The notes: generated by a model from the sequence alone, not told the origin. Counted from the first letter of the stretch, positions 2 through 64,000 are shown. The stretch is DNA of 64,000 nucleotides from a virus (IMGVR_UViG_3300045988_004573:33869-97868); one strand, 5' to 3'. A program made the numbers and translations.

Positions 2-472
2 GTAAGGCATCTGATAAGAGACAAGAAACTCAAGTTCAACTTCATCAGAGGAAGCTATGGCTTTGCAATGTCCTACCTTGACTATAGAATACTCATTAGT
101 AATGAGTTCATCAAGTGGTACAACCTGAGATATAACTTAGGAACTTCTACTGCAAGTTATAATAACTTAGTTAGTAGGGGAATACTGAAAGAATGTATCA
201 TCAACAATGGTAAGATACAGTATTTCAGGAACACAGGGAGAAGTGGTGAGGACTATGGCAGGTATGAGGGTGCTGAGGTGTGTGTATTCAAAGGCAGACC
301 TATCACCATACATATAGTGGATAGTTCTACTGATACACTTAATAAAACAGTATTAGTCAGTGCAGGTATTGCTGAGGAAATAGCTAAAGCAGTGCTTACA
401 ATAGTAAATTACAAGTATGGAAGAGAACAAAGAGAAGAAGCTGGAATTAGTACACCAGCAATCTATCTATAA
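2..472 (+). CDS. hypothetical protein, probably the 3' part of a gene starting left of the window
   Basis: The frame of ORF 68..472 has no stop back to nt 2, so ATG 68 may be internal. Stop TAA 470..472 abuts ATG 474. No motif recognised. Confidence 0.45.
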   Translation, partial: VRHLIRDKKLKFNFIRGSYGFAMSYLDYRILISNEFIKWYNLRYNLGTSTASYNNLVSRGILKECIINNGKIQYFRNTGRSGEDYGRYEGAEVCVFKGRPITIHIVDSSTDTLNKTVLVSAGIAEEIAKAVLTIVNYKYGREQREEAGISTPAIYL

Positions 473-473
473 G

Positions 474-1619
474 ATGGTAATCCCTCAGGAGGTTGAGAAG
501 AAGATAAGACTTCTGTGTAGGGAGATACACAATGTGGAATGGTCTGGAGTACTGTTCTACAAGGTAAGTGGTTCATTTGAGGATAAGTCTTTGACAATCA
601 CTTGTGTAGACTTGTTCCAGATGGATGAAGGTACTGGAGGATATACTGAATATGATATGTCCCCAGATGTCATGGGTTATATGGTAGACCATCCTGAGCT
701 GCTTGATGCAGGTGTATATCAGGGACTTATCCATAGTCATAACAACATGGCTACATTCTTTAGTGGTACTGATACAGCTACCTTGCAGTCAGAAGGCAGT
801 GATATGAACCACTTTGTATCACTGATTGTGAACAATGCTGGTAAATATACAGCAGGAGTGACTAGGAAGGCTAAGCTCAAACAGACAGTCAATGAGGAGT
901 TCACCTATCCCACATGGGGTGATGAGAGAGTATCTGGCAATAGAACCTTTACAGTAGAGAAGGAGTATATCCAATGGTTTAACCTTGACATTGAGATTGA
1001 AGGAGTCAGTAATGACTTTGAAGAGGAAATGCTTGCAAGGATTAAGGAGATTAGGGCAACTAAGTCTAGTAAGAGGAACATTGAGAATGTCAGAAGTCCT
1101 TACTATGGCGGAGGCTATAAGAAAGAGGAATATGGCAAGCACCCAATAGGTTCTTATGGTAATCCTAAGGGATATACAGTACCTGCTGGACCAGCTAATA
1201 CTCCTATCAAGAGAGAGGTTAAGCAACCTACACTCTTTGATGATACTAATGAGGAGTTTATGATTGACTATGAGAAGTTCAAACTCAATGAGGAGATAGT
1301 GGACTGGGTGGTTAAGCAGACCATCACTTGTAGTGTAATCATTCCTAACTCCAGTAACATTGATGTAGAGAAGTGGGCTAGGTCTATGGATTCTCTGTAT
1401 AAGAAGAGATTTGCAGATAAGAAGGAGTTTGAAGCCTTTGCATCAAACTTTGTAGACTTTGTGGTTAACTATACAGAAGACCCAGAGGCTGCTGCTTTCT
1501 TGGATGCTACAGAGATGGCTGCTGTATTGGCTTATCAGGTAAGAGAGAAACTGAACACCCTGCCTAAGAATGAATGGCTGGATGCTTGGATGGAATTGTA
1601 TGATGATTATATACTGTAA
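474..1619 (+). CDS. JAB/MPN+ (JAMM) metalloprotease-domain protein with a long C-terminal extension
   Basis: JAMM signature HSH-x7-S-xx-D (HSHNNMATFFSGTD, nt 732..773) with an upstream Glu context (NVEWSGVLFYK). Start set at ATG 474 right after the upstream stop, not the track start 417. Confidence 0.7.
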   Translation: MVIPQEVEKKIRLLCREIHNVEWSGVLFYKVSGSFEDKSLTITCVDLFQMDEGTGGYTEYDMSPDVMGYMVDHPELLDAGVYQGLIHSHNNMATFFSGTDTATLQSEGSDMNHFVSLIVNNAGKYTAGVTRKAKLKQTVNEEFTYPTWGDERVSGNRTFTVEKEYIQWFNLDIEIEGVSNDFEEEMLARIKEIRATKSSKRNIENVRSPYYGGGYKKEEYGKHPIGSYGNPKGYTVPAGPANTPIKREVKQPTLFDDTNEEFMIDYEKFKLNEEIVDWVVKQTITCSVIIPNSSNIDVEKWARSMDSLYKKRFADKKEFEAFASNFVDFVVNYTEDPEAAAFLDATEMAAVLAYQVREKLNTLPKNEWLDAWMELYDDYIL

Positions 1620-1621
1620 GT

Positions 1622-2794
1622 ATGGAAGATATAGTAAGTGAAGTAACTGCTCAGGCTCTTAATCAGTTAGCTGATAGAAGCGTAGAGCAGGCTCGTCAAG
1701 AGTTTGAAAGAGCTATGGAGGAAGATACCAATGCACTTCCTATCAATGCCTTTGGTGGAACTCTGTCTCCTGTAGGTTCTGCTGGAGAGTTACACTATAT
1801 ATGTACTCTTCTTAGAGACCATAGGGCAGAGCTGTCAGTTGATGAATTGATAGATAGAGACAATCTTGTCTATAATGTGCAGATAAATGAGGAGAATGGT
1901 CAGCACCATGACTATTGGGTCAATGACTATTGGCACAATCAGTTACTCATAGCTGCTGGAGTTATGGATGAGGTAATGCCTGAGGAGGCTCAGTTGAGTC
2001 CAGAAGAGGAAGCAATGTTAGCAGCAGCATTGGAGAGTGAGCATCAAGAGATACCTGTAAATTCACAGACAATCACTGTAGATGAGACTACAAGTAGATT
2101 CAGTGGTGCTATATGGTATGAGCAAATACAACAGCAGACTGTCACTTTGGCAGGTGTTGGAGGTATTGGCAGTTATGTAGGTTTCCTGTTAGGTAGATTG
2201 AAGCCTCAGAGACTTATCATATATGACCCTGACAGGGTTGAGACTGTCAATATGTCAGGTCAGTTGTATGGTCAGACAGATGTTGGTAATTATAAGAGTT
2301 TAGCCCTTGCCAATATGGTCAGAAACTATGCTAACTATAACAATATAGTGGCATTGAATGACAGGTTTGAGGCTAACTCTGAGGCTACTGACATTATGAT
2401 ATGTGGCTTTGACAATATGACAGCCAGAAGGACATTCTATGAGAAGTGGAAGCAGAAGGTACTGTCCTATCCTGCTGGTAGTGATAACAGGAAGAAGTGT
2501 TTGTTCATAGATGGAAGATTGGCAGCAGAAGAGTTCCAAGTACTGTCCATTCAAGGAGATGATGAAAGAGCTATGGTGGAGTATGAGGATAAGTGGCTGT
2601 TCAGTGATGCAGAAGCTGAGGAGACTATATGCTCCTATAAGCAGACTACTTTCATGGCTAACATGATAGCATCAGTGATGGTCAATGTCTTTGTGAACTT
2701 CGTGGCTAACCAGTGTGGTCCTATCATAGACAGGGATGTTCCTTTCTTCATATCCTATGATGCAAGTACAATGTTTACTAAAGTTGAAATGTAA
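1622..2794 (+). CDS. ThiF/MoeB/E1-like adenylyltransferase-fold protein
   Basis: Rossmann glycine loop LAGVGGIGSYVG, then RLIIYDPDRVETVNMSGQ and ICGFDNMTARR, which are typical ThiF/E1 signatures. About 165 aa of unknown acidic N-terminal region. Starts 2 nt after the JAB stop. Confidence 0.75.
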   Translation: MEDIVSEVTAQALNQLADRSVEQARQEFERAMEEDTNALPINAFGGTLSPVGSAGELHYICTLLRDHRAELSVDELIDRDNLVYNVQINEENGQHHDYWVNDYWHNQLLIAAGVMDEVMPEEAQLSPEEEAMLAAALESEHQEIPVNSQTITVDETTSRFSGAIWYEQIQQQTVTLAGVGGIGSYVGFLLGRLKPQRLIIYDPDRVETVNMSGQLYGQTDVGNYKSLALANMVRNYANYNNIVALNDRFEANSEATDIMICGFDNMTARRTFYEKWKQKVLSYPAGSDNRKKCLFIDGRLAAEEFQVLSIQGDDERAMVEYEDKWLFSDAEAEETICSYKQTTFMANMIASVMVNVFVNFVANQCGPIIDRDVPFFISYDASTMFTKVEM

Positions 2795-3594
2795 TGCAAA
2801 GAGTGAGTAGTAGAATGAGTTATACTATTGAGCATATGTATAACTCAAGGGGAGATATAGCTCCCTATAGCAGTCCAGATGCTAGACTAGTCAATTACTC
2901 TATGCACACTGTGTTCCCATCATTCTTTAGGGTTTCCTTACAAGGAGATAAGATTGAGCTTCCTATATTTGCCAAGGAGTATGTGCAAGGCAAGCTCCTT
3001 GAAAGGTTGGAAAATAGAGGAAACCCTATGAGAAGAAGTGACATTATCATACACTTCCACATTGTAGAGAGTAACTATGCTCCCTATAGGACAGCAGATG
3101 CTTTAATCAGGAATCTGGTGGAGTTCAACTCCAGTAGAAGAGGTATGTATCTAACTGCCAGTACCAATAAAGGAGAGACATATCATGGATGTAATGGTAC
3201 TATATTCAATAAGGATATGGTTCCACTTATTTTCAATGTCATAGAATGTGAGATTGTGGATAATACTCTTGTATATAAGAGAGTCAAGAGTTACATACAT
3301 CCATCAGTATTCTATTCTGATGGTACTGTGGAGAAGTGTATAGCCAACAAGATTATCCCATTTGTCATGCAGAATGGTATAGAGATAAGACCCTATGACT
3401 CAAGGGTAGTTGATAACATCAGCTATGTGGGTACAGGAAGAATCAGGAAGACTATACCAGAACTGTCAGTTGCCAATGTAGCTGACAGGTTCTTCTGTAA
3501 GCCTATTCTTCCCAGTGTGGCATATAGTGATGATGACATCAATGATATGCTGAACAGGAACATTGATGATGTATTCAATATCATTGGGTTATGA
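2794..3594 (+). CDS. hypothetical protein coupled to the JAB/E1 pair
   Basis: The ATG overlaps the upstream stop (TAATG) and the stop overlaps the next ATG (ATGA). No family recognised. HPSVFYSDGTVEKC only loosely recalls a UBC HPN..C flap. Confidence 0.5.
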   Translation: MQRVSSRMSYTIEHMYNSRGDIAPYSSPDARLVNYSMHTVFPSFFRVSLQGDKIELPIFAKEYVQGKLLERLENRGNPMRRSDIIIHFHIVESNYAPYRTADALIRNLVEFNSSRRGMYLTASTNKGETYHGCNGTIFNKDMVPLIFNVIECEIVDNTLVYKRVKSYIHPSVFYSDGTVEKCIANKIIPFVMQNGIEIRPYDSRVVDNISYVGTGRIRKTIPELSVANVADRFFCKPILPSVAYSDDDINDMLNRNIDDVFNIIGL

Positions 3595-4301
3595 CACTTG
3601 AGGAATACTTTGGTGATTGGCTTAGAGTGATTGACAGAGCAGAGTTGGATAAGGTATTGACACTCCTTAACAGGATGTATAGGGTAAAACCTATATGTCC
3701 TGCACAGGAGAATGTATTCAAGGCATTCAACTTGTGTAAGTACCGTGACTGTAAGGTGGTATTCATAGGTCAAGACCCATACCCTCAGAAGGGTGTGGCT
3801 ACTGGCATATTGTTTGGGAATGATGCAAGTACTAGAGAAGATGACTGGTCTCCTTCATTAAAAATTGTTAGAGATTCAGTTATAGACTTGCGCAGACCAC
3901 ATAATTTGATTACCTTTGACCCCACCTTAGAGTCATGGGCTAAGCAAGGCATCCTTATGATTAACTCTGCTTTGACCGCGGAGATGAATAAGGTAGGCTC
4001 ACACACTATGTTGTGGAGACCTTTCATCTCAAAGCTGCTAAAGAAGATGTCTGAGTATGACACTGGTATGATATATGTGTTGTTTGGTGGTACTGCCCGT
4101 ACCTTCAAGCCATATATAGGAAAGTATAATGATGTGATAGAGATAGAGCATCCTGCATGCTTTGCAAGAATCAACCAAGACATGCCCTCAGATATATTCT
4201 ATGAGATTAACAAACTATTAAAAGCAAGGTATAACACCACTATTAAATGGTATGATGAGGAACAGTGCAATGGAGATATGGAAGAGTATAACAGGCTATG
4301 A
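3591..4301 (+). CDS. ung: uracil-DNA glycosylase (family 1-like)
   Basis: VVFIGQDPYP (GQDPY motif), GILMINSALT, and the His-Pro of IEHPACF near the C-terminus. Confidence 0.8.
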   Translation: MTLEEYFGDWLRVIDRAELDKVLTLLNRMYRVKPICPAQENVFKAFNLCKYRDCKVVFIGQDPYPQKGVATGILFGNDASTREDDWSPSLKIVRDSVIDLRRPHNLITFDPTLESWAKQGILMINSALTAEMNKVGSHTMLWRPFISKLLKKMSEYDTGMIYVLFGGTARTFKPYIGKYNDVIEIEHPACFARINQDMPSDIFYEINKLLKARYNTTIKWYDEEQCNGDMEEYNRL

Positions 4302-4767
4302 TAACTTATATGAAGTAAGTAACCTTGGTAGAGTAAAGTCTCTTAAGAGAGTACCTAATACTATCTTGAAACCGTCTAGTAATGGTAGGTATTTGCAACT
4401 AGTACTGCACAAGGATGGCAGTAAGAGTAAGAAATACATACACAGACTAGTGGCAGAGGCTTTTATATCTAACCCTTATGGCTTTTCAGAGGTAAATCAT
4501 AAGGATGAGGACAAAACCAACAATAATGTATCTAACTTGGAATGGTGTGATAGCACATACAATAACACATATAATCAGAGACATATCAAATCAAGAGAGT
4601 CTTTGAAGAAACCAATTATAGTTAGAGATATTAGTGGGGAGATTATAGCGGAGTATTCTTCAATATCCCAAGCATCTATTGCTCTTAATATGGACAAGAG
4701 CAATATATCAAAATGCTGTAGAGGTGTTATGTGTTCCTATAAAAGTTTAACATTTTCCTATAAATAG
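4270..4767 (+). CDS. HNH homing endonuclease (NUMOD4 + HNH + C-terminal HTH)
   Basis: WKSITGYDNLYEVSNLGRVKS (NUMOD4-like), HRLVAEAF..VNHKDEDKTNNNVSNLEW (HNH core) and SISQASIALNMDKSNISKCC (NUMOD1/IENR-like). Start at ATG 4270, overlapping the UDG 3' end. Confidence 0.75.
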   Translation: MEIWKSITGYDNLYEVSNLGRVKSLKRVPNTILKPSSNGRYLQLVLHKDGSKSKKYIHRLVAEAFISNPYGFSEVNHKDEDKTNNNVSNLEWCDSTYNNTYNQRHIKSRESLKKPIIVRDISGEIIAEYSSISQASIALNMDKSNISKCCRGVMCSYKSLTFSYK

Positions 4768-59211: not shown

Positions 59212-61158
59212 TTATACAGTTGTACCAGTTGCATTCACCCAAGCTGAACCATTTCCCCAGATAGGTTTATTTAAGGTAGTATCAAAATAAAAGATACCAG
59301 CTTGTGGGGCTGCTGGTCTTGAGCTTGAAGGACCAACAGTAGGAGTAGGGTTTAAGGAGCTTGTGGCTACATGTAACCATTCACTCCATGTATTATTATC
59401 CATCCTTTTCCTGATAAAAAGATAAGCATAAGGTTGTTCTCCTCTTACAAACATAGGAAAGAACAACTGTTTTGTCAGACCTTTATAATATCCATTTGTA
59501 GGATGGATACTTAAAAGTAGGCCACCTTCAGCATTAAGAGGTGATTTATAAATACTGTCTGCTCCGATAACAGTACTAACTATTCCAATCGGTAAACTAT
59601 CTGGAAGTGTATCTAAGTTAAATGGACTTGATGCAACAGAACTCAAATCATCATATTCACCAATATCAGAAGGAGCACCACACAAATTGTTTTTGAATAT
59701 GTATCTATCAAGATTAGCATTTTCTGCTAATTCTACAAACTTAACATTAGAAGCCTCCCAAGCATTTACTCTATTATTAACAATGATGGCTGACCCTATT
59801 GTTCCTCCCAACTTAAATGCAGAATCAGTATTAATTCTCTGATGAAAGTTTCCATCAATAAGAACTGCTCCGCAATTATCAAAAGTAACAGCAGGATTAT
59901 TCCATAACTCCATTCCAACTTGGTCTCCTGTTATATTGTTGCAATAATTTGCTTTTACACTATTACTAATAGCATTGCCATACTTTAACTGTCCACCAAT
60001 ATTATTTGTAATAATTACATCTGAAATTTTGTCTACTGAAAAATATACTTTAGACTTAATAAATGTGTTTTTGGTAATAATCAGACTACATGTTGTCTGA
60101 GATTCCATTTTTATATATATATCATGAGAATTGCTGCTTACAAATGTATTATTTTCTATTATGAATCTATCAGCAGTAATAGAATTTTTCATAGGATTAA
60201 CAAATGCTATAGTCCCAACAACACCTTTAATATTTTCAAAGTGATTGTTGATAATCTTAACATTCTTAATTTCAACATCTGCTTCTGGCTCAAAATCTAT
60301 AGCTCCTGGCATTACACCACCAGAGCTATTTTTAAAAAGATTATTATCAATTGTAAAATTGTTACATACATAAACAGATATACCCTGCCTACTAACTATA
60401 TTTTTACCATCAAAAATACAATCTCTTACTGTAACATCATTAACAAAAGAAGTCATCCATCTTCCCTCATCCGGGGATAGCAGTGCTCCAGCAGTTATTC
60501 CATCCCCACAATAGCTTAAAAATTTACATCCTTCAATAATACAATTATCTATATTTCCAAGATTAATAAGTGCTGAGAATTGAAAAATTTCAGCATGAGT
60601 GTGTATCAATTCGAGATTATAGAATCTAACATTTTTTATTTTTGGAGCAGTCAAATCTGCATCTTCTGGAGGAGTTGTGAAAATATTACAGCACCAGCCA
60701 TCAGCAATTATTTGAGCACCTGCTAATCCATTAAATTGTACACCGCTCTTTATATGGATACCATCTTCTCTTCTATTAAATGACTCATTATTTACCCCAA
60801 ATATTTTATATTTATTAGTAAAAATAATCTGTGCATTATATGGAGCTATATCAACCGCAGTTTGTATTGCTTTTAGGTCATTAGTAATACCATCCCCTTC
60901 TGCACCAAACCACTCTGGATATAAGGTTGAAGTACTTGTGTTTCCTGTTATAGTAACAGTATTAGCTATTTTTATAGTTCCTATAAGAGCTGTATTATTA
61001 AGAACTAATGTTCCATTATTAATACCTCCTCCTTGAAAGTCTAAGGTACACCCTTCTGGAATAGTAAGAGTTCCTCCTACAAGGTCTATAACCTTAGTTA
61101 TTTTATATATAACATTAGGCTTATTAAATTTATCTTGAACTGCCATATTTATTATCAT
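59212..61158 (-). CDS. tail fiber/tailspike with a pectate-lyase-like beta-helix
   Basis: WFGAEGDGITNDLKAIQTAV (pectate lyase superfamily motif), many short beta-helix-like repeats, and C-terminal RPAAPQAGIFYFDTTLNKPIWGNGSAWVNATG. Confidence 0.7.
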   Translation of the reverse strand: MIINMAVQDKFNKPNVIYKITKVIDLVGGTLTIPEGCTLDFQGGGINNGTLVLNNTALIGTIKIANTVTITGNTSTSTLYPEWFGAEGDGITNDLKAIQTAVDIAPYNAQIIFTNKYKIFGVNNESFNRREDGIHIKSGVQFNGLAGAQIIADGWCCNIFTTPPEDADLTAPKIKNVRFYNLELIHTHAEIFQFSALINLGNIDNCIIEGCKFLSYCGDGITAGALLSPDEGRWMTSFVNDVTVRDCIFDGKNIVSRQGISVYVCNNFTIDNNLFKNSSGGVMPGAIDFEPEADVEIKNVKIINNHFENIKGVVGTIAFVNPMKNSITADRFIIENNTFVSSNSHDIYIKMESQTTCSLIITKNTFIKSKVYFSVDKISDVIITNNIGGQLKYGNAISNSVKANYCNNITGDQVGMELWNNPAVTFDNCGAVLIDGNFHQRINTDSAFKLGGTIGSAIIVNNRVNAWEASNVKFVELAENANLDRYIFKNNLCGAPSDIGEYDDLSSVASSPFNLDTLPDSLPIGIVSTVIGADSIYKSPLNAEGGLLLSIHPTNGYYKGLTKQLFFPMFVRGEQPYAYLFIRKRMDNNTWSEWLHVATSSLNPTPTVGPSSSRPAAPQAGIFYFDTTLNKPIWGNGSAWVNATGTTV

Positions 61159-61172
61159 TTTTTAATTTGCTG

Positions 61173-61203
61173 CAAATATAAGTAAAAGTTCTTATATATG
61201 CAA
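61173..61203 (-). promoter_or_regulatory. Bacteroides-type promoter TTG-N20-TATATTTG
   Basis: On the minus strand: TTG (61203..61201), a 20-nt spacer, TATATTTG (61180..61173). ATG 61158 is 14 nt downstream. Confidence 0.55.
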
Positions 61204-61206
61204 GTA

Positions 61207-61242
61207 AAAGTAGTACTTGATTTATATATCAAATACTACTTT
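61207..61242 (-). terminator. hairpin after the 818-aa fiber gene
   Basis: aaagtagtacttgat 61207..61221 pairs with atcaaatactacttt 61228..61242 (15 bp, one mismatch, 6-nt loop). It lies immediately upstream of the next promoter. Confidence 0.55.
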
Positions 61243-61248
61243 ATTTAG

Positions 61249-63705
61249 TTAGACTATTACCACTCTTGTTATAAGAGTACCATCTTCATTCATCCAAAGA
61301 TTGTTCTCACTATCATAGATAATCCATTGCATTAAATCCACATCAAAGTATCTGTATCCAGTAGAAGGATGTTCAGGTCTTTGAGCTGTAGTACCTGCTT
61401 TTCTATTGGACTTAAATCCATCTCCATCTACCCATACATTGTGGTTCCACCATACAGGGTGATTTAATGTACTATCAAAATAAGCCTTACCATTATCATA
61501 AGTGAGGTCTTGTAGCACAGGAAGATCAGTTGTAGCAAAAGCCTTAACTAAGCTATCCTTAGAAACCATTTCTTCTGTAAAGAAGTGGGATAATGTATAG
61601 CTTCCTGTACTTGGTAAGTCACTTCCACCACCCAAGTAAACTATATTATTATCATAATCACAGCTTCTTACATAGGCTTGTATTCCATTTAGAATAACCA
61701 AATCACCCCCATTGAAGTTAGCAGAAGCTCCTGCATTAGTCATATTACATATACCATAACCATTCATAGTACATGGTATATTAGTAGCAGGATTAGTTGG
61801 ATTCAAGAAAGCTTTTGCATTTGAATACTGAGTACTGTTACCATACCAGTCATAGAATTTCTGATTAGGAGACACTCTTGTACAAGCTCTGTTATTCTGT
61901 ACTAATGCCTCAAAGTCCAGCTTATAATTAGCTAATCTTGGTAATACCTCAGCTAAAGTTACTGAATTGATACCTGTGTGAATTTCTGGGTATGATGAAT
62001 GTCTGTTTACATTTATGTTACCTGTATATTCAACTCTGCCATCAACAGCTACATATAAGTTATTATATGTGAGTTCTCTAAATACACACTTAGTAACAGC
62101 TAATCCATCAATAATCTTGTAGGTCTTTATACCATAATCACCCCCTCTTATGTAGCTGTTTCTAATCTCACAATTAACTAACAGATTGTCAGCAACCTTA
62201 TTAAGCTCAATACATTTCTTATTCCTTGGGTTCTCAACATAACAGTTATCAACTGTAATATTACATACATTGTTGATAAGTAGTGTACCTCCATCCCAAG
62301 AGAATCCTTGCAGCATTATTCTAGCTGCTTGATAATCATCAAGCACTGCATCACTAAAGTCAGTATCACCAACAATAACTGAATATTCTCCTGTAGGAGA
62401 ACTATAGTTACCACCAGTAATATTTATATCATTAGCCATGCAAGCATTGCTATAAATACTCAGGTTCTTGGTATTATAGTTAGACATACAATTAAGGATA
62501 TTAATTGTATATTTCTTAGCAAGAATACCTATCTTACAATATTTTACCTTTACATTATCAAGAACTACATAAGGAGCATCTACATCTATACCAGTAATAG
62601 TTGAAGTAGTGACCATTCCAGTTCCCAAATCATTACCTTCTACATATAAATCCTTAATAGTAGTTACAAAAGGAAAGCTCCTTTGGTTGATATGTATCAA
62701 AGAGTAAGCCATCTGTACTTCTCTATTCTTGATTCTACTACTATTACCTATAATATCATTATATACTTCAAGTGTAGAATTAACAACATAAGTCAAGTTA
62801 GTAGCTAAGATAAGGGGGGCTTTTAATGCTAAAGCTCTCTTAATTGCAAGTGTATCATCTGTAAGTCCATCTCCTTTAGCACCAAACCATCCTACTTCAA
62901 CATTAGCATTAGCTACAGTGCCTGTTACATCTGCTGTTATATTAGGATTTCCAGCTAAAACAGTATTATTAAGCTGTAGAGTACCATTATTTATGCTACC
63001 TCCTTCAAATAAAAGAATACTTCCACTTGGAACAAATAATGTTTGTCTGTTCAAGTTATAATCATATTGTAATATATAGATAGTATTCTCTTTGGAAATC
63101 ATTGACTGGTTAAGCCAATTCATAGTAATCATACTATCAGTTATAGAGTCTTTAACAGTTACAATATTCTTTCTAAGATATATTCTTCCTAAACCAGAAT
63201 AATCGGCAGTATTATAAACTTTATCTGCAAACTTTAGAGATACTTGATTTGCACTGTTTACCTCAGTTACAATATCCTCACTATCTATAATAGCTATATC
63301 CTCCATAATAAGGCTTGAAAGTTCAGTCCATAAAGATAAAATATTCCATTGATTCTTTCTTGAACCTTGAAACTGATATATTGACCACCTACCTCTATCA
63401 TCCAAGAAAGTAATTACTTGACCAATCTTTCTACTTCTGCAAGGAATTAATCCTATAGCTTGAGATAGTGAAATATAACTCTCATTATACTTGTCAGTGA
63501 TATTCACAAAGTCAGATACACCAAGAAGAAATAGTTGTTTAACTATATCTTTCACTGATGCCTTTACATTCTTACCATTCTGTACAAGAACTACAGTTTC
63601 ATTTCCTTTAAGAGGAGTTTCAGCTCCTGCAAAGTCAGTATCTTTCTTACTGTTTGCAAGGAGCCACTTCTCTATCTTTCTATAATCTTCTTGTGTAAAA
63701 AACAT
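61249..63705 (-). CDS. tail fiber/tailspike with a pectate-lyase-like beta-helix
   Basis: WFGAKGDGLTDDTLAIKRALA, LFVPSGSILLFEGGSINNGTLQLNNTVLAG (paralogous to the 648-aa protein), and two C-terminal copies of the YFD..L..W..W..DG motif. Confidence 0.7.
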   Translation of the reverse strand: MFFTQEDYRKIEKWLLANSKKDTDFAGAETPLKGNETVVLVQNGKNVKASVKDIVKQLFLLGVSDFVNITDKYNESYISLSQAIGLIPCRSRKIGQVITFLDDRGRWSIYQFQGSRKNQWNILSLWTELSSLIMEDIAIIDSEDIVTEVNSANQVSLKFADKVYNTADYSGLGRIYLRKNIVTVKDSITDSMITMNWLNQSMISKENTIYILQYDYNLNRQTLFVPSGSILLFEGGSINNGTLQLNNTVLAGNPNITADVTGTVANANVEVGWFGAKGDGLTDDTLAIKRALALKAPLILATNLTYVVNSTLEVYNDIIGNSSRIKNREVQMAYSLIHINQRSFPFVTTIKDLYVEGNDLGTGMVTTSTITGIDVDAPYVVLDNVKVKYCKIGILAKKYTINILNCMSNYNTKNLSIYSNACMANDINITGGNYSSPTGEYSVIVGDTDFSDAVLDDYQAARIMLQGFSWDGGTLLINNVCNITVDNCYVENPRNKKCIELNKVADNLLVNCEIRNSYIRGGDYGIKTYKIIDGLAVTKCVFRELTYNNLYVAVDGRVEYTGNINVNRHSSYPEIHTGINSVTLAEVLPRLANYKLDFEALVQNNRACTRVSPNQKFYDWYGNSTQYSNAKAFLNPTNPATNIPCTMNGYGICNMTNAGASANFNGGDLVILNGIQAYVRSCDYDNNIVYLGGGSDLPSTGSYTLSHFFTEEMVSKDSLVKAFATTDLPVLQDLTYDNGKAYFDSTLNHPVWWNHNVWVDGDGFKSNRKAGTTAQRPEHPSTGYRYFDVDLMQWIIYDSENNLWMNEDGTLITRVVIV

Positions 63706-63715
63706 AGTATTTAGT

Positions 63716-64000
63716 TTAATCCTTAACCATTATATCTGCCACCTTTAATGCAGACAGAATTGCATTTACCTTAGTAACCACTGTTGCAAGTTCAGCTCCA
63801 GTAGCCAAATCACCTACATTAGTAGCTTGTTTTACACCACCTATTTCAATTGTAGTAGCCTTAGGGAGTACATAAGGTTCTGAATCACCTCCTACAGTCT
63901 CCCATTCCCCATTGTTAAAGTACTTCATTGTACCTTTATACAGCCATACTGAGTTAGTGTTAGGGGCATTAGGACTTATTACTAAAGTTCTTATTGTCTT
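63716..64000 (-). CDS. tail-fiber-associated protein, C-terminal part (gene continues beyond the right edge)
   Basis: The frame of ORF 63716..63928 has no stop up to nt 64000, so ATG 63928 may be internal. It contains LPKATTIEIGGVKQA, a P-x-AT..G.VK.A element common in phage fibers. Confidence 0.45.
   Translation of the reverse strand, partial: KTIRTLVISPNAPNTNSVWLYKGTMKYFNNGEWETVGGDSEPYVLPKATTIEIGGVKQATNVGDLATGAELATVVTKVNAILSALKVADIMVKD

Follow-up and report, generated by a model that had tools for sequence, protein, structure and literature searches.

A conserved four-gene module in crAss-like gut phages, including a ubiquitin-like protein, a JAMM peptidase and an E1-like enzyme, appears to form a ubiquitin-like tagging kit

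Adjoining phage genes for a JAMM/JAB peptidase and a ThiF/E1-like enzyme raise the question of what such a pair could process and activate. Both lie at the start of the stretch of viral DNA analyzed here (the window; 64,000 nucleotides, IMGVR_UViG_3300045988_004573:33869-97868), which derives from a crAss001-like (Steigviridae-type) gut phage, and they belong to three closely coupled ORFs, all on the plus strand: 417..1619 (JAMM/JAB), 1622..2794 (ThiF/E1-like) and 2794..3594. The tight coupling described in the initial annotation was observed again, with a 2-nt spacer between the first two ORFs (1619/1622), a TAATG overlap at 2794 and, in addition, an ATGA overlap at 3591, where a Family-1-like uracil-DNA glycosylase gene (UDG; 3591..4301, plus strand) begins. 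The surroundings are, as had been proposed, a replication and nucleotide-metabolism block containing UDG, NrdD and dUTPase genes. That annotation had reported no visible ubiquitin-like substrate for the trio. In fact, a beta-grasp ubiquitin-like protein (Ubl) with an invariant Gly is encoded two genes upstream, and it had seemed absent because the window edge cuts it off. The original observation was therefore real and its interpretation partly right: crAss-like phages appear to carry their own, hitherto undescribed, ubiquitin-like tagging kit. No literature on this phage module was found, and in the GenBank record of crAss001 the proteins are labelled 'metalloprotease domain containing protein' (Gp77), 'thiamine biosynthesis protein ThiF' (Gp76) or hypothetical (the rest).

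The conserved core comprised four genes in fixed order, pro-Ubl (Gp79 family), Gp78 family, JAB and E1, followed in this lineage by 2794..3594 as a lineage-specific fifth gene. Within the window the core is represented by the 3' end of the Gp78-family gene (2..472), JAB and E1, and the pro-Ubl gene lies outside. Conservation in related phages, which the initial annotation had set out as a point to check, was evident from a neighbourhood survey in which gene order was the same in all of the approximately 95 fetched loci covering the region. The same gene set was carried by 447 IMG/VR contigs and 74 GenBank phage records; these genes are far beyond chance. JAB matches by tblastn were exactly the 74 phage records which form the module-type E1 matches, and Ubl and Gp78 queries returned an identical set of 45 crAss-type records; Ubl and Gp78 homologues were also detected in FpV4 by blastp. 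Among 50,697 phage records, none was found with one core gene but without the others.

The Ubl gene is located 0.9-1.6 kb outside the window and encodes a product of 228 aa, in which a beta-grasp domain of approximately 85 aa is followed by a flexible basic tail, K-K-[VI]-K-S-G, and a helical C-terminal domain. P0001 has the same sequence as the protein of this phage (100% identity), and its AF2 model gave a pLDDT of 86-92 for residues 1-82 and a strand order of b-b-a-b-b-b-b-b, which fits a beta-grasp; tail residues 86-90 were floppy and the C-terminal domain was all-helical with no UBC fold. Of the 50 best Foldseek matches in the PDB, nearly all were of ubiquitin fold or contained a ubiquitin-like domain, and these included DIX, the TINCR Ubl, SUMO1, ubiquitin and UBX. 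Probability was 1.0 for most of them and target-normalised TM was <=0.74, with E-values (4e-3 to 2e-2) which exceeded 1e-3 because the query was the whole 228-aa model. Across 37 sequences with identity down to 21%, Gly90 never varied and Ser89 hardly did, a pattern repeated in 7 more divergent loci. In at least two related phage lineages, HNH homing-endonuclease genes interrupt the Ubl gene two codons past the Gly, so that the split gene ends with ..KSGKF and a stop in cr106_1 and in L045/L052 (L052 keeps only a remnant of the insert), and with ..RSGIC and a stop in L085. One distant phage encodes a stand-alone Ubl of 77 aa (P0166) which ends ..KSGK, and the Gp78-like and JAB genes come directly after it. 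Split and stand-alone forms stop 1-2 residues beyond the Gly, and the tail terminates in Ser-Gly, not Gly-Gly. The locus encodes a beta-grasp modifier with a C-terminal-type Gly open to activation, as is characteristic of a Ubl cascade.

The product of 417..1619, a 400-aa homologue of crAss001 Gp77, has a JAB domain at approximately residues 1-220 and a C-terminal region of approximately 180 aa of unknown fold, ending DDYIL. Its motifs predict a JAMM/MPN+ metallopeptidase. The zinc/catalytic motif HSHNNMATFFSGTD (732..773; H106, H108, S116, D119) is an exact HxH-x7-S-xx-D, the conserved upstream catalytic Glu41 lies in EWSG (537-548), and all five residues were invariant across 12 diverse JAB homologues. 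While the intact motif of the initial annotation was upheld, its start codon at 474 was not: translation probably begins at ATG 417, since the additional N-terminal segment (..LELVH..) is kept in crAss001, cr106_1 and FpV4 and since GenBank and metagenome gene calls take the longer form. The Pfam match to Prok-JAB (E=3.3e-4, 21 bits) was under the 25-bit cutoff, and that to Rpn11 was weak (E=0.81).

For 1622..2794, the ThiF/E1 signatures reported previously were in place, and profile matches and motifs assign an E1/ThiF-type adenylation domain to 2069..2794. The Arg motif RFSG (2096-2107; invariant R-F), the Gly-rich ATP loop GVGGIGS (2153-2173; invariant GxGGxxS), YDPD (2222-2233; invariant D), the catalytic-type Asp in FDNMTAR (2408-2428; invariant DNM..R) and Cys337 in ICSYKQT (Cys at 2630-2632; motif C-[ST]-x-x-[QA]-T) were retained in diverse homologues and point to a domain with both the ATP-binding and the catalytic motifs of adenylation. 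The ORF matched Pfam ThiF (1.1e-16) and, in a PDB profile search, UBA5 (3.3e-12), MccB (2.5e-10), PaaA (5.7e-10) and TcdA (6e-10 to 2e-9). The proposed likeness to Cap2/Cap3 and Bil-type sets was reflected in PADLOC matches to Cap2 E1-E2 models (best 2.3e-11), confined to the Rossmann part (model positions approximately 310-460, the E1 part), and, weakly, to BilD (2.2e-5); the match to BubCD was also weak (4.8e-5). The best NCBIfam matches were ThiS adenylyltransferase ThiF models (8.7e-16 and 1.4e-15), with equivalog cutoffs missed (58.2 vs 159 bits and 57.7 vs 152 bits). The profile comparison with Cap2, BilD, MoeB/ThiF and TcdA thus produced matches but an ambiguous clade assignment: because the sequence scores about equally near UBA5, MccB, PaaA, TcdA, MoeB and ThiF, its clade alone does not say 'conjugating'.

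Cys337 was invariant in 11/11 diverse module E1s, 73 residues past the DNM Asp and before a hydrophobic helix, and a Cys and a Thr were the only crossover-region residues common to these sequences, with no Tyr. From its spacing and from the MoeB and UBA5 sequences, Cys337 is a candidate for the crossover-loop Cys (UBA5 C250); sequence alignment of the C-terminal half to solved E1s gave no match. Homologue alignment showed that the acidic N-terminal extension (1622..2068) is hypervariable, being approximately 150 aa here, from 0 to approximately 200 aa among relatives, and entirely missing in FpV4, Dulem virus 41, L098 and L099. Residues approximately 34-112 (approximately nt 1721-1957), which include Cys61 of GELHYICTLL, are absent from the nearest relatives, themselves 90-98% identical in the E1 domain. 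The Cys-containing N-terminal region singled out in the initial annotation is accordingly not an E2 or Cys domain.

The remaining core gene contributes the last 156 of 437 codons of a Gp78-family protein to the window (2..472, plus strand; full gene L003:7538-8851). Members of this family are 370-460 aa in size and share the invariants E..HSH..C, within a conserved core encoded 5' of the window (invariant T-N-E, Y-x-H-S-H and C-x-G-x-G-P); the part inside the window has an invariant F-K-G (nt 287-295) and a conserved C-terminal tail, ..AIYL (nt 458-469). An AF2 model (mean pLDDT 71) of the homologue P0207, which shares approximately 36% identity with the protein of this phage, had no PDB neighbour and no E2 among its matches (best E 1.1). 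None of 39 family members had a Pfam, PADLOC or NCBIfam match, including Prok-E2, BilB and Cap2-E2, and hhalign against UBE2D2 gave 0.8% probability. A UBC-like HP...C stretch had been loosely suggested for 2794..3594, a gene in translational coupling with E1; its 266-aa product (crAss001 Gp75 family) is of unknown fold. In 150 representatives of this family, His169 was kept in 44% and Cys182 in 10%, and in YHGCNG the His was replaced by Tyr in 85% and the Cys kept in 11%; with these candidate residues poorly kept and no match in Pfam or PDB searches, assignment as a UBC-like protein or E2 was rejected. The Gp75 family is fast-evolving, lineage-restricted and without conserved Cys or His, was not present in FpV4, Dulem virus 41, L098 or L099, and is accessory, outside the universal core. 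A UBC-fold E2 with a catalytic Cys was not detected in the Gp78 family, in 2794..3594 or in the Gp79 C-terminal domain.

Comparison with known systems placed the module in none of them. In type I Bub (6E.1/DUF6527), which has a BubAB Ubl-E2 fusion, a BubCD JAB-E1 fusion and BubE, the JAB domain cuts the Ubl fusion right past a conserved Gly, prior to E1 activation (PMC11601596). The phage module likewise has an N-terminal Ubl fusion with a junction Gly and a JAB encoded beside a minimal UBA5/ThiF-like E1. However, the partner domain of the phage Ubl is helical, not UBC, and wholly missing in one lineage, the JAB and E1 are not fused to each other, an invariant Cys is kept in the E1 where Bub relies on Tyr and Ser oxyesters, and the module includes the 370-460-aa orphan and belongs to a phage replication block, not to a defence island of a bacterium. 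Pfam and profile searches found no DUF6527/BubE near the module, and with neither fusion, no DUF6527 and no conserved Tyr, membership of type I Bub was ruled out. Its plan has four parts, as in BilABCD (Ubl, JAB peptidase of deubiquitinase type, E1 and one further transfer protein), but no UBC-fold equivalent of BilB was detected, the module is phage-encoded, and its E1 is a single adenylation domain of approximately 240 aa in place of the IAD-AAD-CYS arrangement of BilD (PMC11601596). In type II CBASS a JAB also stands beside an E1-like enzyme, and Cap2 models were the best PADLOC matches; the phage E1 nevertheless has no fused E2 and a hypervariable or absent N-terminal extension, the module has a dedicated Ubl whereas Cap2 activates the CD-NTase C-terminus, and no CD-NTase or effector gene was among its neighbours. 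Membership was ruled out on the missing E2, CD-NTase and effector, the match being to the E1 part only. The only earlier-described phage Ubl and JAB pair found was TAPI (Ubl) and TAPK (JAB and NlpC) of lambdoid and T1 phages, where the TAPI Ubl, likewise with a conserved Gly at its end and a linker and C-terminal domain beyond, was predicted by Iyer et al. to be released by the TAPK JAB past that Gly (PMC1779556). This pair is without an E1, lies in a tail-assembly cluster and has an NlpC/P60 fusion, in contrast to the motif-intact E1 and replication block of the phage module. The PRTRC (ParB-related, ThiF-related cassette) was ruled out by a TIGR03736 score of 38.5 bits against a cutoff of 144.75, with no PRTRC or ParB match for the other module proteins.

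On balance we lean slightly towards a pathway in which the JAB frees the Ubl at its Gly, the E1 adenylates the Ubl and acts via invariant Cys337, and the Ubl is then transferred to a protein target. The Ubl would be made as the 228-aa precursor, and the JAMM peptidase would cleave directly past Gly90, baring its carboxylate. To judge from its conserved motifs, the E1-like enzyme would bind ATP and adenylate Gly90, after which Cys337 could accept the Ubl as a thioester. The activated Ubl may then be transferred to a lysine on a protein of the phage or of its host, either directly or via the Gp78-family protein in place of an E2, and the JAB could also undo the attachment.

The main rival to Ubl conjugation is a sulfur-carrier role, which we regard as unlikely. 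CysO/Mec+ and QbsE/QbsD are JAMM-trimmed sulfur carriers with a trio of Ubl, JAB and E1-like enzyme. By analogy, the trimmed Ubl would be adenylated by the ThiF-like enzyme and converted to a C-terminal thiocarboxylate, which would donate sulfur to the Gp78-family protein, acting through its invariant His and Cys as an enzyme that yields a nucleotide, DNA base, tRNA base or cofactor with a thio modification. Such systems (CysO-Mec+-MoeZ, QbsE-QbsD-QbsC; ThiS-ThiF, MoaD-MoeB) resemble the module in a small beta-grasp protein with a JAMM-uncovered Gly, ThiF/MoeB-type adenylation of that Gly and a partner enzyme encoded alongside. The trio is common to JAMM-trimmed carriers (Iyer 2006, PMC1779556), and the ThiF models as best NCBIfam matches, the nucleotide-metabolism neighbours, the constant presence of an enzyme-like orphan whose E, HSH and C are invariant, and the failure to detect an E2 (PDB neighbours of the Gp78 model; Pfam/PADLOC) would all suit such a role. 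Against this, the ThiF scores are far under equivalog cutoffs (58 vs 159 bits), the tail is Ser-Gly as opposed to the Gly-Gly of ThiS and MoaD, and the Ubl is usually fused to a long C-terminal domain of 140 aa, like conjugating Ubls, and not to a 1-2 residue cap. Neither a sulfur donor nor a known sulfur acceptor is encoded nearby: the 21-kb neighbourhood contained no rhodanese, cysteine desulfurase, PP-loop ATPase, ThiG/MoaE/CysM-like gene or CxxC zinc motif. The missed cutoffs, the Ser-Gly tail and the lack of thi/moa genes nearby also told against the ThiF/MoeB adenylyltransferase of the GenBank label.

Still less probable is a counter-defence function, in which the JAB removes conjugates of Ubl type made by the host (CD-NTases primed by Cap2 in type II CBASS, virion proteins modified by Bil) and the E1 and Ubl serve as decoys or competitors of host machinery. 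Among bacterial relatives, only anti-phage systems have been characterised (PMC11601596, PMC10557695), and the restriction to some crAss-like lineages (74 of the 50,697 phage records) is as an accessory function would predict; the E1 matches to many Cap2 models and to BilD point the same way, but the PADLOC matches span the generic Rossmann part only. The module moreover lies in a replication block, not a variable anti-defence region, and its order is kept across very distant phages. The JAB always occurs with its own Ubl, bearing the invariant processing-site Gly, and a motif-intact E1, and this constant pairing favours a self-contained pathway over a lone deconjugase. MccB and PaaA act in peptide modification and TcdA in RNA base cyclisation, and their profile scores nearly match that of UBA5; an adenylating enzyme of this type, or a true thiamine ThiF as the 'thiamine biosynthesis protein' label would have it, with the JAB and neighbours unrelated, is nonetheless very improbable given the strict four-gene co-occurrence with no record found holding one gene alone, the presence in the operon of a beta-grasp protein whose terminal-type Gly is invariant, the intact JAMM adjoining, the lack of thiamine genes nearby and the wide margins by which every NCBIfam equivalog cutoff was missed.

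Ubl conjugation could take a more specific form, which we put forward tentatively and consider rather doubtful: a complete, self-contained system of crAss-like phages in which the non-UBC Gp78-like protein acts as E2/E3 and a phage replication protein, such as UDG, or a host protein is tagged during infection. If true, this would be the first ubiquitination system in a virus of bacteria, and would add a new class of Ubl-transfer enzyme. The UDG gene adjoined or lay near the module in every lineage seen, being 3' of it in this phage; in FpV4 and L100 it directly precedes the Ubl gene, and in L099 it lies 5' of that gene at a distance of approximately 0.7 kb.

The window comes from a crAss-like phage, closest in GenBank to cr106_1 and Bacteroides phage crAss001 (Steigviridae); protein identity to these was 55-70%, and part of the E1 gene aligned at about 72% DNA identity. 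ORF listing returned the genes set out in the initial annotation, namely the cut 3' end of an ORF at 2..472, a JAB gene running from 417 or 474 to 1619, an E1-like gene at 1622..2794, ORF4 at 2794..3594 and the UDG gene at 3591..4301. The genes are tightly coupled, by a 2-nt spacer and by TAATG and ATGA overlaps. By an exact-protein match the window was located on a 98.7-kb metagenomic contig, from which the DNA upstream of it was obtained (locus L003; window position = L003 position - 8379). On this contig the cut ORF was the end of a 437-aa homologue of crAss001 Gp78 (L003:7538-8851), preceded by a gene encoding a 228-aa Gp79 homologue. The initial annotation had reported no visible ubiquitin-like substrate; a ubiquitin-like protein (Ubl), the Gp79 homologue, was found outside the window, two genes upstream of JAB. 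The four genes encoding the Gp79-like, Gp78-like, JAB and E1 proteins were conserved in the same order in the five phages compared (the window phage, crAss001, cr106_1, Flavobacterium phage FpV4 and Dulem virus 41).

All Gp79 homologues begin with a domain of approximately 85-90 aa that ends in K-x-[VI]-[KRS]-S-G. Gly90 was invariant and Ser89 nearly so in an alignment of 37 sequences with identity to Gp79 of the window phage down to 21%, and the S-G was also kept at seven further divergent loci. The AlphaFold2 model of P0001, the phage's own Gp79 sequence, had a pLDDT of 86-92 over residues 1-82 in the order b-b-a-b-b-b-b-b, followed by a floppy tail (residues 86-90) and then helices and a disordered linker; this strand and helix order is consistent with a beta-grasp. 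Nearly all of the top 50 PDB matches obtained with Foldseek were ubiquitin-fold proteins or contained a ubiquitin-like domain, including DIX, the TINCR Ubl, SUMO1, ubiquitin, UBX and B. fragilis ubiquitin. Probability was 1.0 for most, with target-normalised TM up to 0.74; E-values were limited to 4e-3 to 2e-2, since the search used the complete 228-aa model. The Ubl profile had no significant similarity to the ubiquitin sequence, and the evidence for the predicted Ubl fold is structural only.

The Ubl gene of cr106_1 is interrupted two codons past the Gly by an annotated HNH endonuclease gene; it encodes a 92-aa product ending ..KSGKF, and its C-terminal half forms an ORF of its own. The same split with the same ..KSGKF ending was present at two further loci, L045 and L052, the latter retaining only a remnant of the insert, while at L085 the gene was also split with a different tail (..RSGIC). 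In a distant phage from a metagenome the Ubl (P0166) is a free-standing 77-aa protein that ends ..KSGK and lacks the C-terminal domain, and the Gp78-like and JAB genes follow directly after it. These split and stand-alone genes therefore mark the beta-grasp with its terminal Gly as the unit that functions; the helical domain at the Gp79 C-terminus is dispensable for the core. A BubB-like E2 in this domain was ruled out because its model was all-helical. Within residues ~91-228 (L003:7055-7465), a helix-loop-helix segment with the conserved sequence F-G-[RK]-N-[YF]-T-Q-x-S-T-x-x-L recalls SAP/HeH/Rho-N DNA-binding motifs; behind it come a low-complexity linker and a C-terminal helical portion.

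The likelier start of the JAB gene (417..1619) is ATG 417 rather than ATG 474, since the 19 N-terminal residues encoded from there are kept in homologues. Its JAMM signature was intact, as first noted, with Glu41 in EWSG and H106-S-H108-x7-S116-x2-D119, and these five residues were invariant in 12 homologues with identity down to 28%. The Pfam Prok-JAB match was sub-threshold (E=3.3e-4, 21 bits vs 25-bit cutoff). Short conserved tails with acidic and aromatic or hydrophobic residues were observed on three module proteins, JAB (..DDYIL, window 1602..1616), Gp78 (..AIYL, 458..469) and Gp79 (..EMFGFVER, L003:7430-7465); they recall C-terminal docking peptides and might tether these proteins to a common partner.

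With respect to the E1-like protein (1622..2794), the proposed ThiF/E1-type adenylation domain was recovered by Pfam (ThiF, 1.1e-16). The best match of a four-sequence profile was UBA5 (3.3e-12), followed by MccB, PaaA, TcdA, MoeB, ThiF, eukaryotic E1s, BubCD and Cap2. The PADLOC Cap2 and BilD models aligned over the Rossmann part only, and the protein fell far short of every NCBIfam equivalog cutoff, including those of ThiF and PRTRC-ThiF. Identity of the E1 domain between the window phage and the two distant phages FpV4 and Dulem virus 41 was 34-39%. The suggestion that the N-terminal region supplies an E2 or Cys domain did not hold, as this extension is hypervariable (0 to about 200 aa) or absent, and the closest relatives have no residues ~34-112 and hence lack the Cys that had been singled out. 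Invariant in 11 of 11 aligned divergent module E1s were R159-F, G178-x-G-G-x-x-S, D202, N210, Q214, D264-N-M-x-x-R and Cys337 (I-C-S-Y-K-Q-T). Cys337 is located 73 residues past the catalytic-type Asp and right ahead of a hydrophobic helix, a position which would correspond to the crossover-loop Cys site of MoeB, ThiF and UBA5. The Cys in UBA5 is C250 (PMC11601596). The C-terminal half of the E1-like protein aligned to no solved E1 in a profile search, so by its placement Cys337 is a candidate crossover-loop Cys.

The fourth core gene encodes an orphan, enzyme-like family. The Gp78 core motifs T-N-E, D, Y-x-H-S-H, C-x-G-x-G-P and E-S-x-x-G-x-P-Y were invariant, and the C-terminal part, which is the portion inside the window, carries a conserved F-K-G hairpin and a Y-[LI] tail. 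The AF2 model of P0207, a homologue that shares about 36% identity with Gp78 of the window phage (pLDDT 71, pTM 0.61), resembled no PDB structure (best E 1.1) and matched only uncharacterised crAss-like proteins in BFVD. Searches of 39 members against Pfam, PADLOC and NCBIfam gave zero matches, a profile search of PDB sequences returned nothing, and no UBC-fold E2 was detected by structure, family, profile or hhalign comparison. Foldseek matches of very low probability (GTP cyclohydrolase I, peptide deformylase and EndoG, <=0.07) and a 'ubiquitin variant' match of the C-terminal hairpin (E=0.46) were disregarded. The invariant Gp78 segment G-Y-[IM]-H-S-H-x-P-G (residues ~175-185 of the protein encoded at L003:7538-8851) resembles the JAMM segment G-W-Y-H-S-H-P-G (window 729-752), with an invariant Glu ~45 residues before the HSH strand and a Cys ~16 residues after it, and hhalign paired the two HSH motifs at just 3.6% probability. 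That the family may be a diverged JAB is offered as an idea rather than a claim.

Conservation of the cluster was assessed at 80 IMG/VR loci, examined from 447 positives, and at 11 loci in a genome collection found with the E1 alignment. The order Ubl, Gp78, JAB, E1 was present in both sets wherever a locus covered the region; the one exception was L099, whose gap yielded no detectable Gp78. ORF4 and UDG came next after E1 in most examined loci. Conservation in related phages was also evident by tblastn: JAB occurred in 74 of 50,697 GenBank phage records, which by organism coincide with the 74 module-type E1 matches. Ubl and Gp78 queries matched the same 45 crAss-type records; in the 29 Flavobacterium phages both have diverged beyond the reach of tblastn, and blastp detected both in FpV4. 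No record with one module gene and lacking the others was found among the 50,697 GenBank phage records. The Ubl, JAB, E1 and orphan enzyme-like protein are a fixed part of the crAss001-type replication block. The module was found in only some of the crAss-like phages examined, and the similarity of IAS virus and cr116_1 to the window's first 6 kb was confined to UDG.

Two bacterial contigs in the genome collection contained the entire module, L097 (640-kb 'Bacilli bacterium' MAG contig) and L098 (374-kb Puia sp. contig), which could reflect an integrated crAss-like element or chimeric assembly; the remaining matches there resembled mis-binned phage contigs of ~90-110 kb or short fragments. ThiF-like genes of jumbo Xanthomonas phages were not counted as module members, having no recognisable JAB or Ubl nearby. 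In these phages, such as PhiXhv-16 (L087, 3956-4639), a different short ThiF-like gene lies beside a 70-aa ORF and an 892-aa ORF. A match to 'Acinetobacter phage MD-2021a' (CAKLQF020000002.1, L088) was an ordinary bacterial moeB locus in a record filed as phage, and lies outside the module.

The closest worked-out precedent for the module is Type I Bub, in which the BubCD JAB domain cleaves the BubAB Ubl-E2 fusion directly behind a conserved Gly before the Ubl is activated by the UBA5/ThiF-like E1 domain (PMC11601596). The same processing was predicted by Iyer et al. 2006 for the phage tail-assembly Ubl TAPI by the TAPK JAB (PMC1779556). By analogy, JAB would cut the Ubl after Gly90, E1 would adenylate it and might then hold it as a thioester on Cys337, and the Ubl could be handed to a target lysine, possibly via the Gp78-family protein. 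The sequences show the parts list and its conservation only; each of these chemical steps is inferred from the precedents. As the chief alternative, the Ubl may be a sulfur carrier, JAMM-trimmed like CysO or QbsE, that supplies a thio-modification; this is favoured by the missing E2 and the nucleotide-metabolism context of the genes. Against it speak the length of the Ubl fusion, the Ser-Gly tail and the finding of zero sulfur-transfer genes within the 21-kb neighbourhood. Should the module conjugate, phages themselves would employ ubiquitin-like tagging and a non-UBC transfer enzyme may emerge, whereas a sulfur carrier would indicate a phage-made thio-modification of a new sort.

To our knowledge, the characterised prokaryotic Ubl/E1/JAB conjugation systems (CBASS Cap2/Cap3, Bil and Bub) are all bacterial anti-phage defences. 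The sole described phage Ubl/JAB pair found in the literature was lambda TAPI/TAPK, which has no E1, in contrast to the crAss module. Modules that combine Ubl, E1 and JAB are already known; the crAss module differs in being phage-encoded within a replication block, in its new Ubl architecture, in having no recognisable E2 and in a partner family that is new and obligatory. Its genes go by 'thiamine biosynthesis protein ThiF', 'metalloprotease domain containing protein' and 'hypothetical protein' in GenBank, and PHROGs lists every family of the module as of unknown function. The public 'thiamine biosynthesis protein' label is misleading whether the module conjugates or carries sulfur. No paper was found tying crAss-like phages to ThiF, JAB, ubiquitin-like proteins or metalloprotease in a search that covered subscription journals thinly, so an earlier mention is possible. 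Phages of the crAss001 type are among the commonest human-gut viruses, and crAss001 and the Flavobacterium FpV phages can be cultivated. With four small genes and a cultured phage, the pathway is directly testable.

ORF4 (2794..3594) had been considered as a UBC-like E2, a reading that its family contradicted. Among 264 representatives at 50% clustering, no Cys or His was found at well-conserved positions (70% or more); over 150 representatives, His169 was retained in 44%, Cys182 in 10%, and the YHGCNG His was replaced by Tyr in 85%. ORF4 had no match in Pfam or PDB, was missing from FpV4, Dulem 41, L098 and L099, and in the five-phage comparison was detectable in the crAss001-like group only. 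The adjacent UDG gene is intact in the window (3591..4301). At L047 (7690-8603), and also at L074, L075, L078, L085 and L092, it is broken within the GQDPY active-site motif by a ~0.9-kb insert encoding a LAGLIDADG-type ORF (LLIGSLLGDG ... WYMDDGY), apparently a homing element or group I intron. A NUMOD4/HNH_3 homing-endonuclease ORF on the + strand of the window (4252..4767) overlaps the UDG 3' end, and the endonuclease ORFs that split the Ubl gene (cr106_1, L045 and L085; annotated or unscanned) were similar to it in sequence motifs. There were no tRNA genes in the whole 64-kb window. Both GC skew and AT skew flip sign at ~30000, marking a coding-strand switch, and G+C drops from ~0.38-0.40 to 0.32-0.33 over the last 4 kb (60000-64000).
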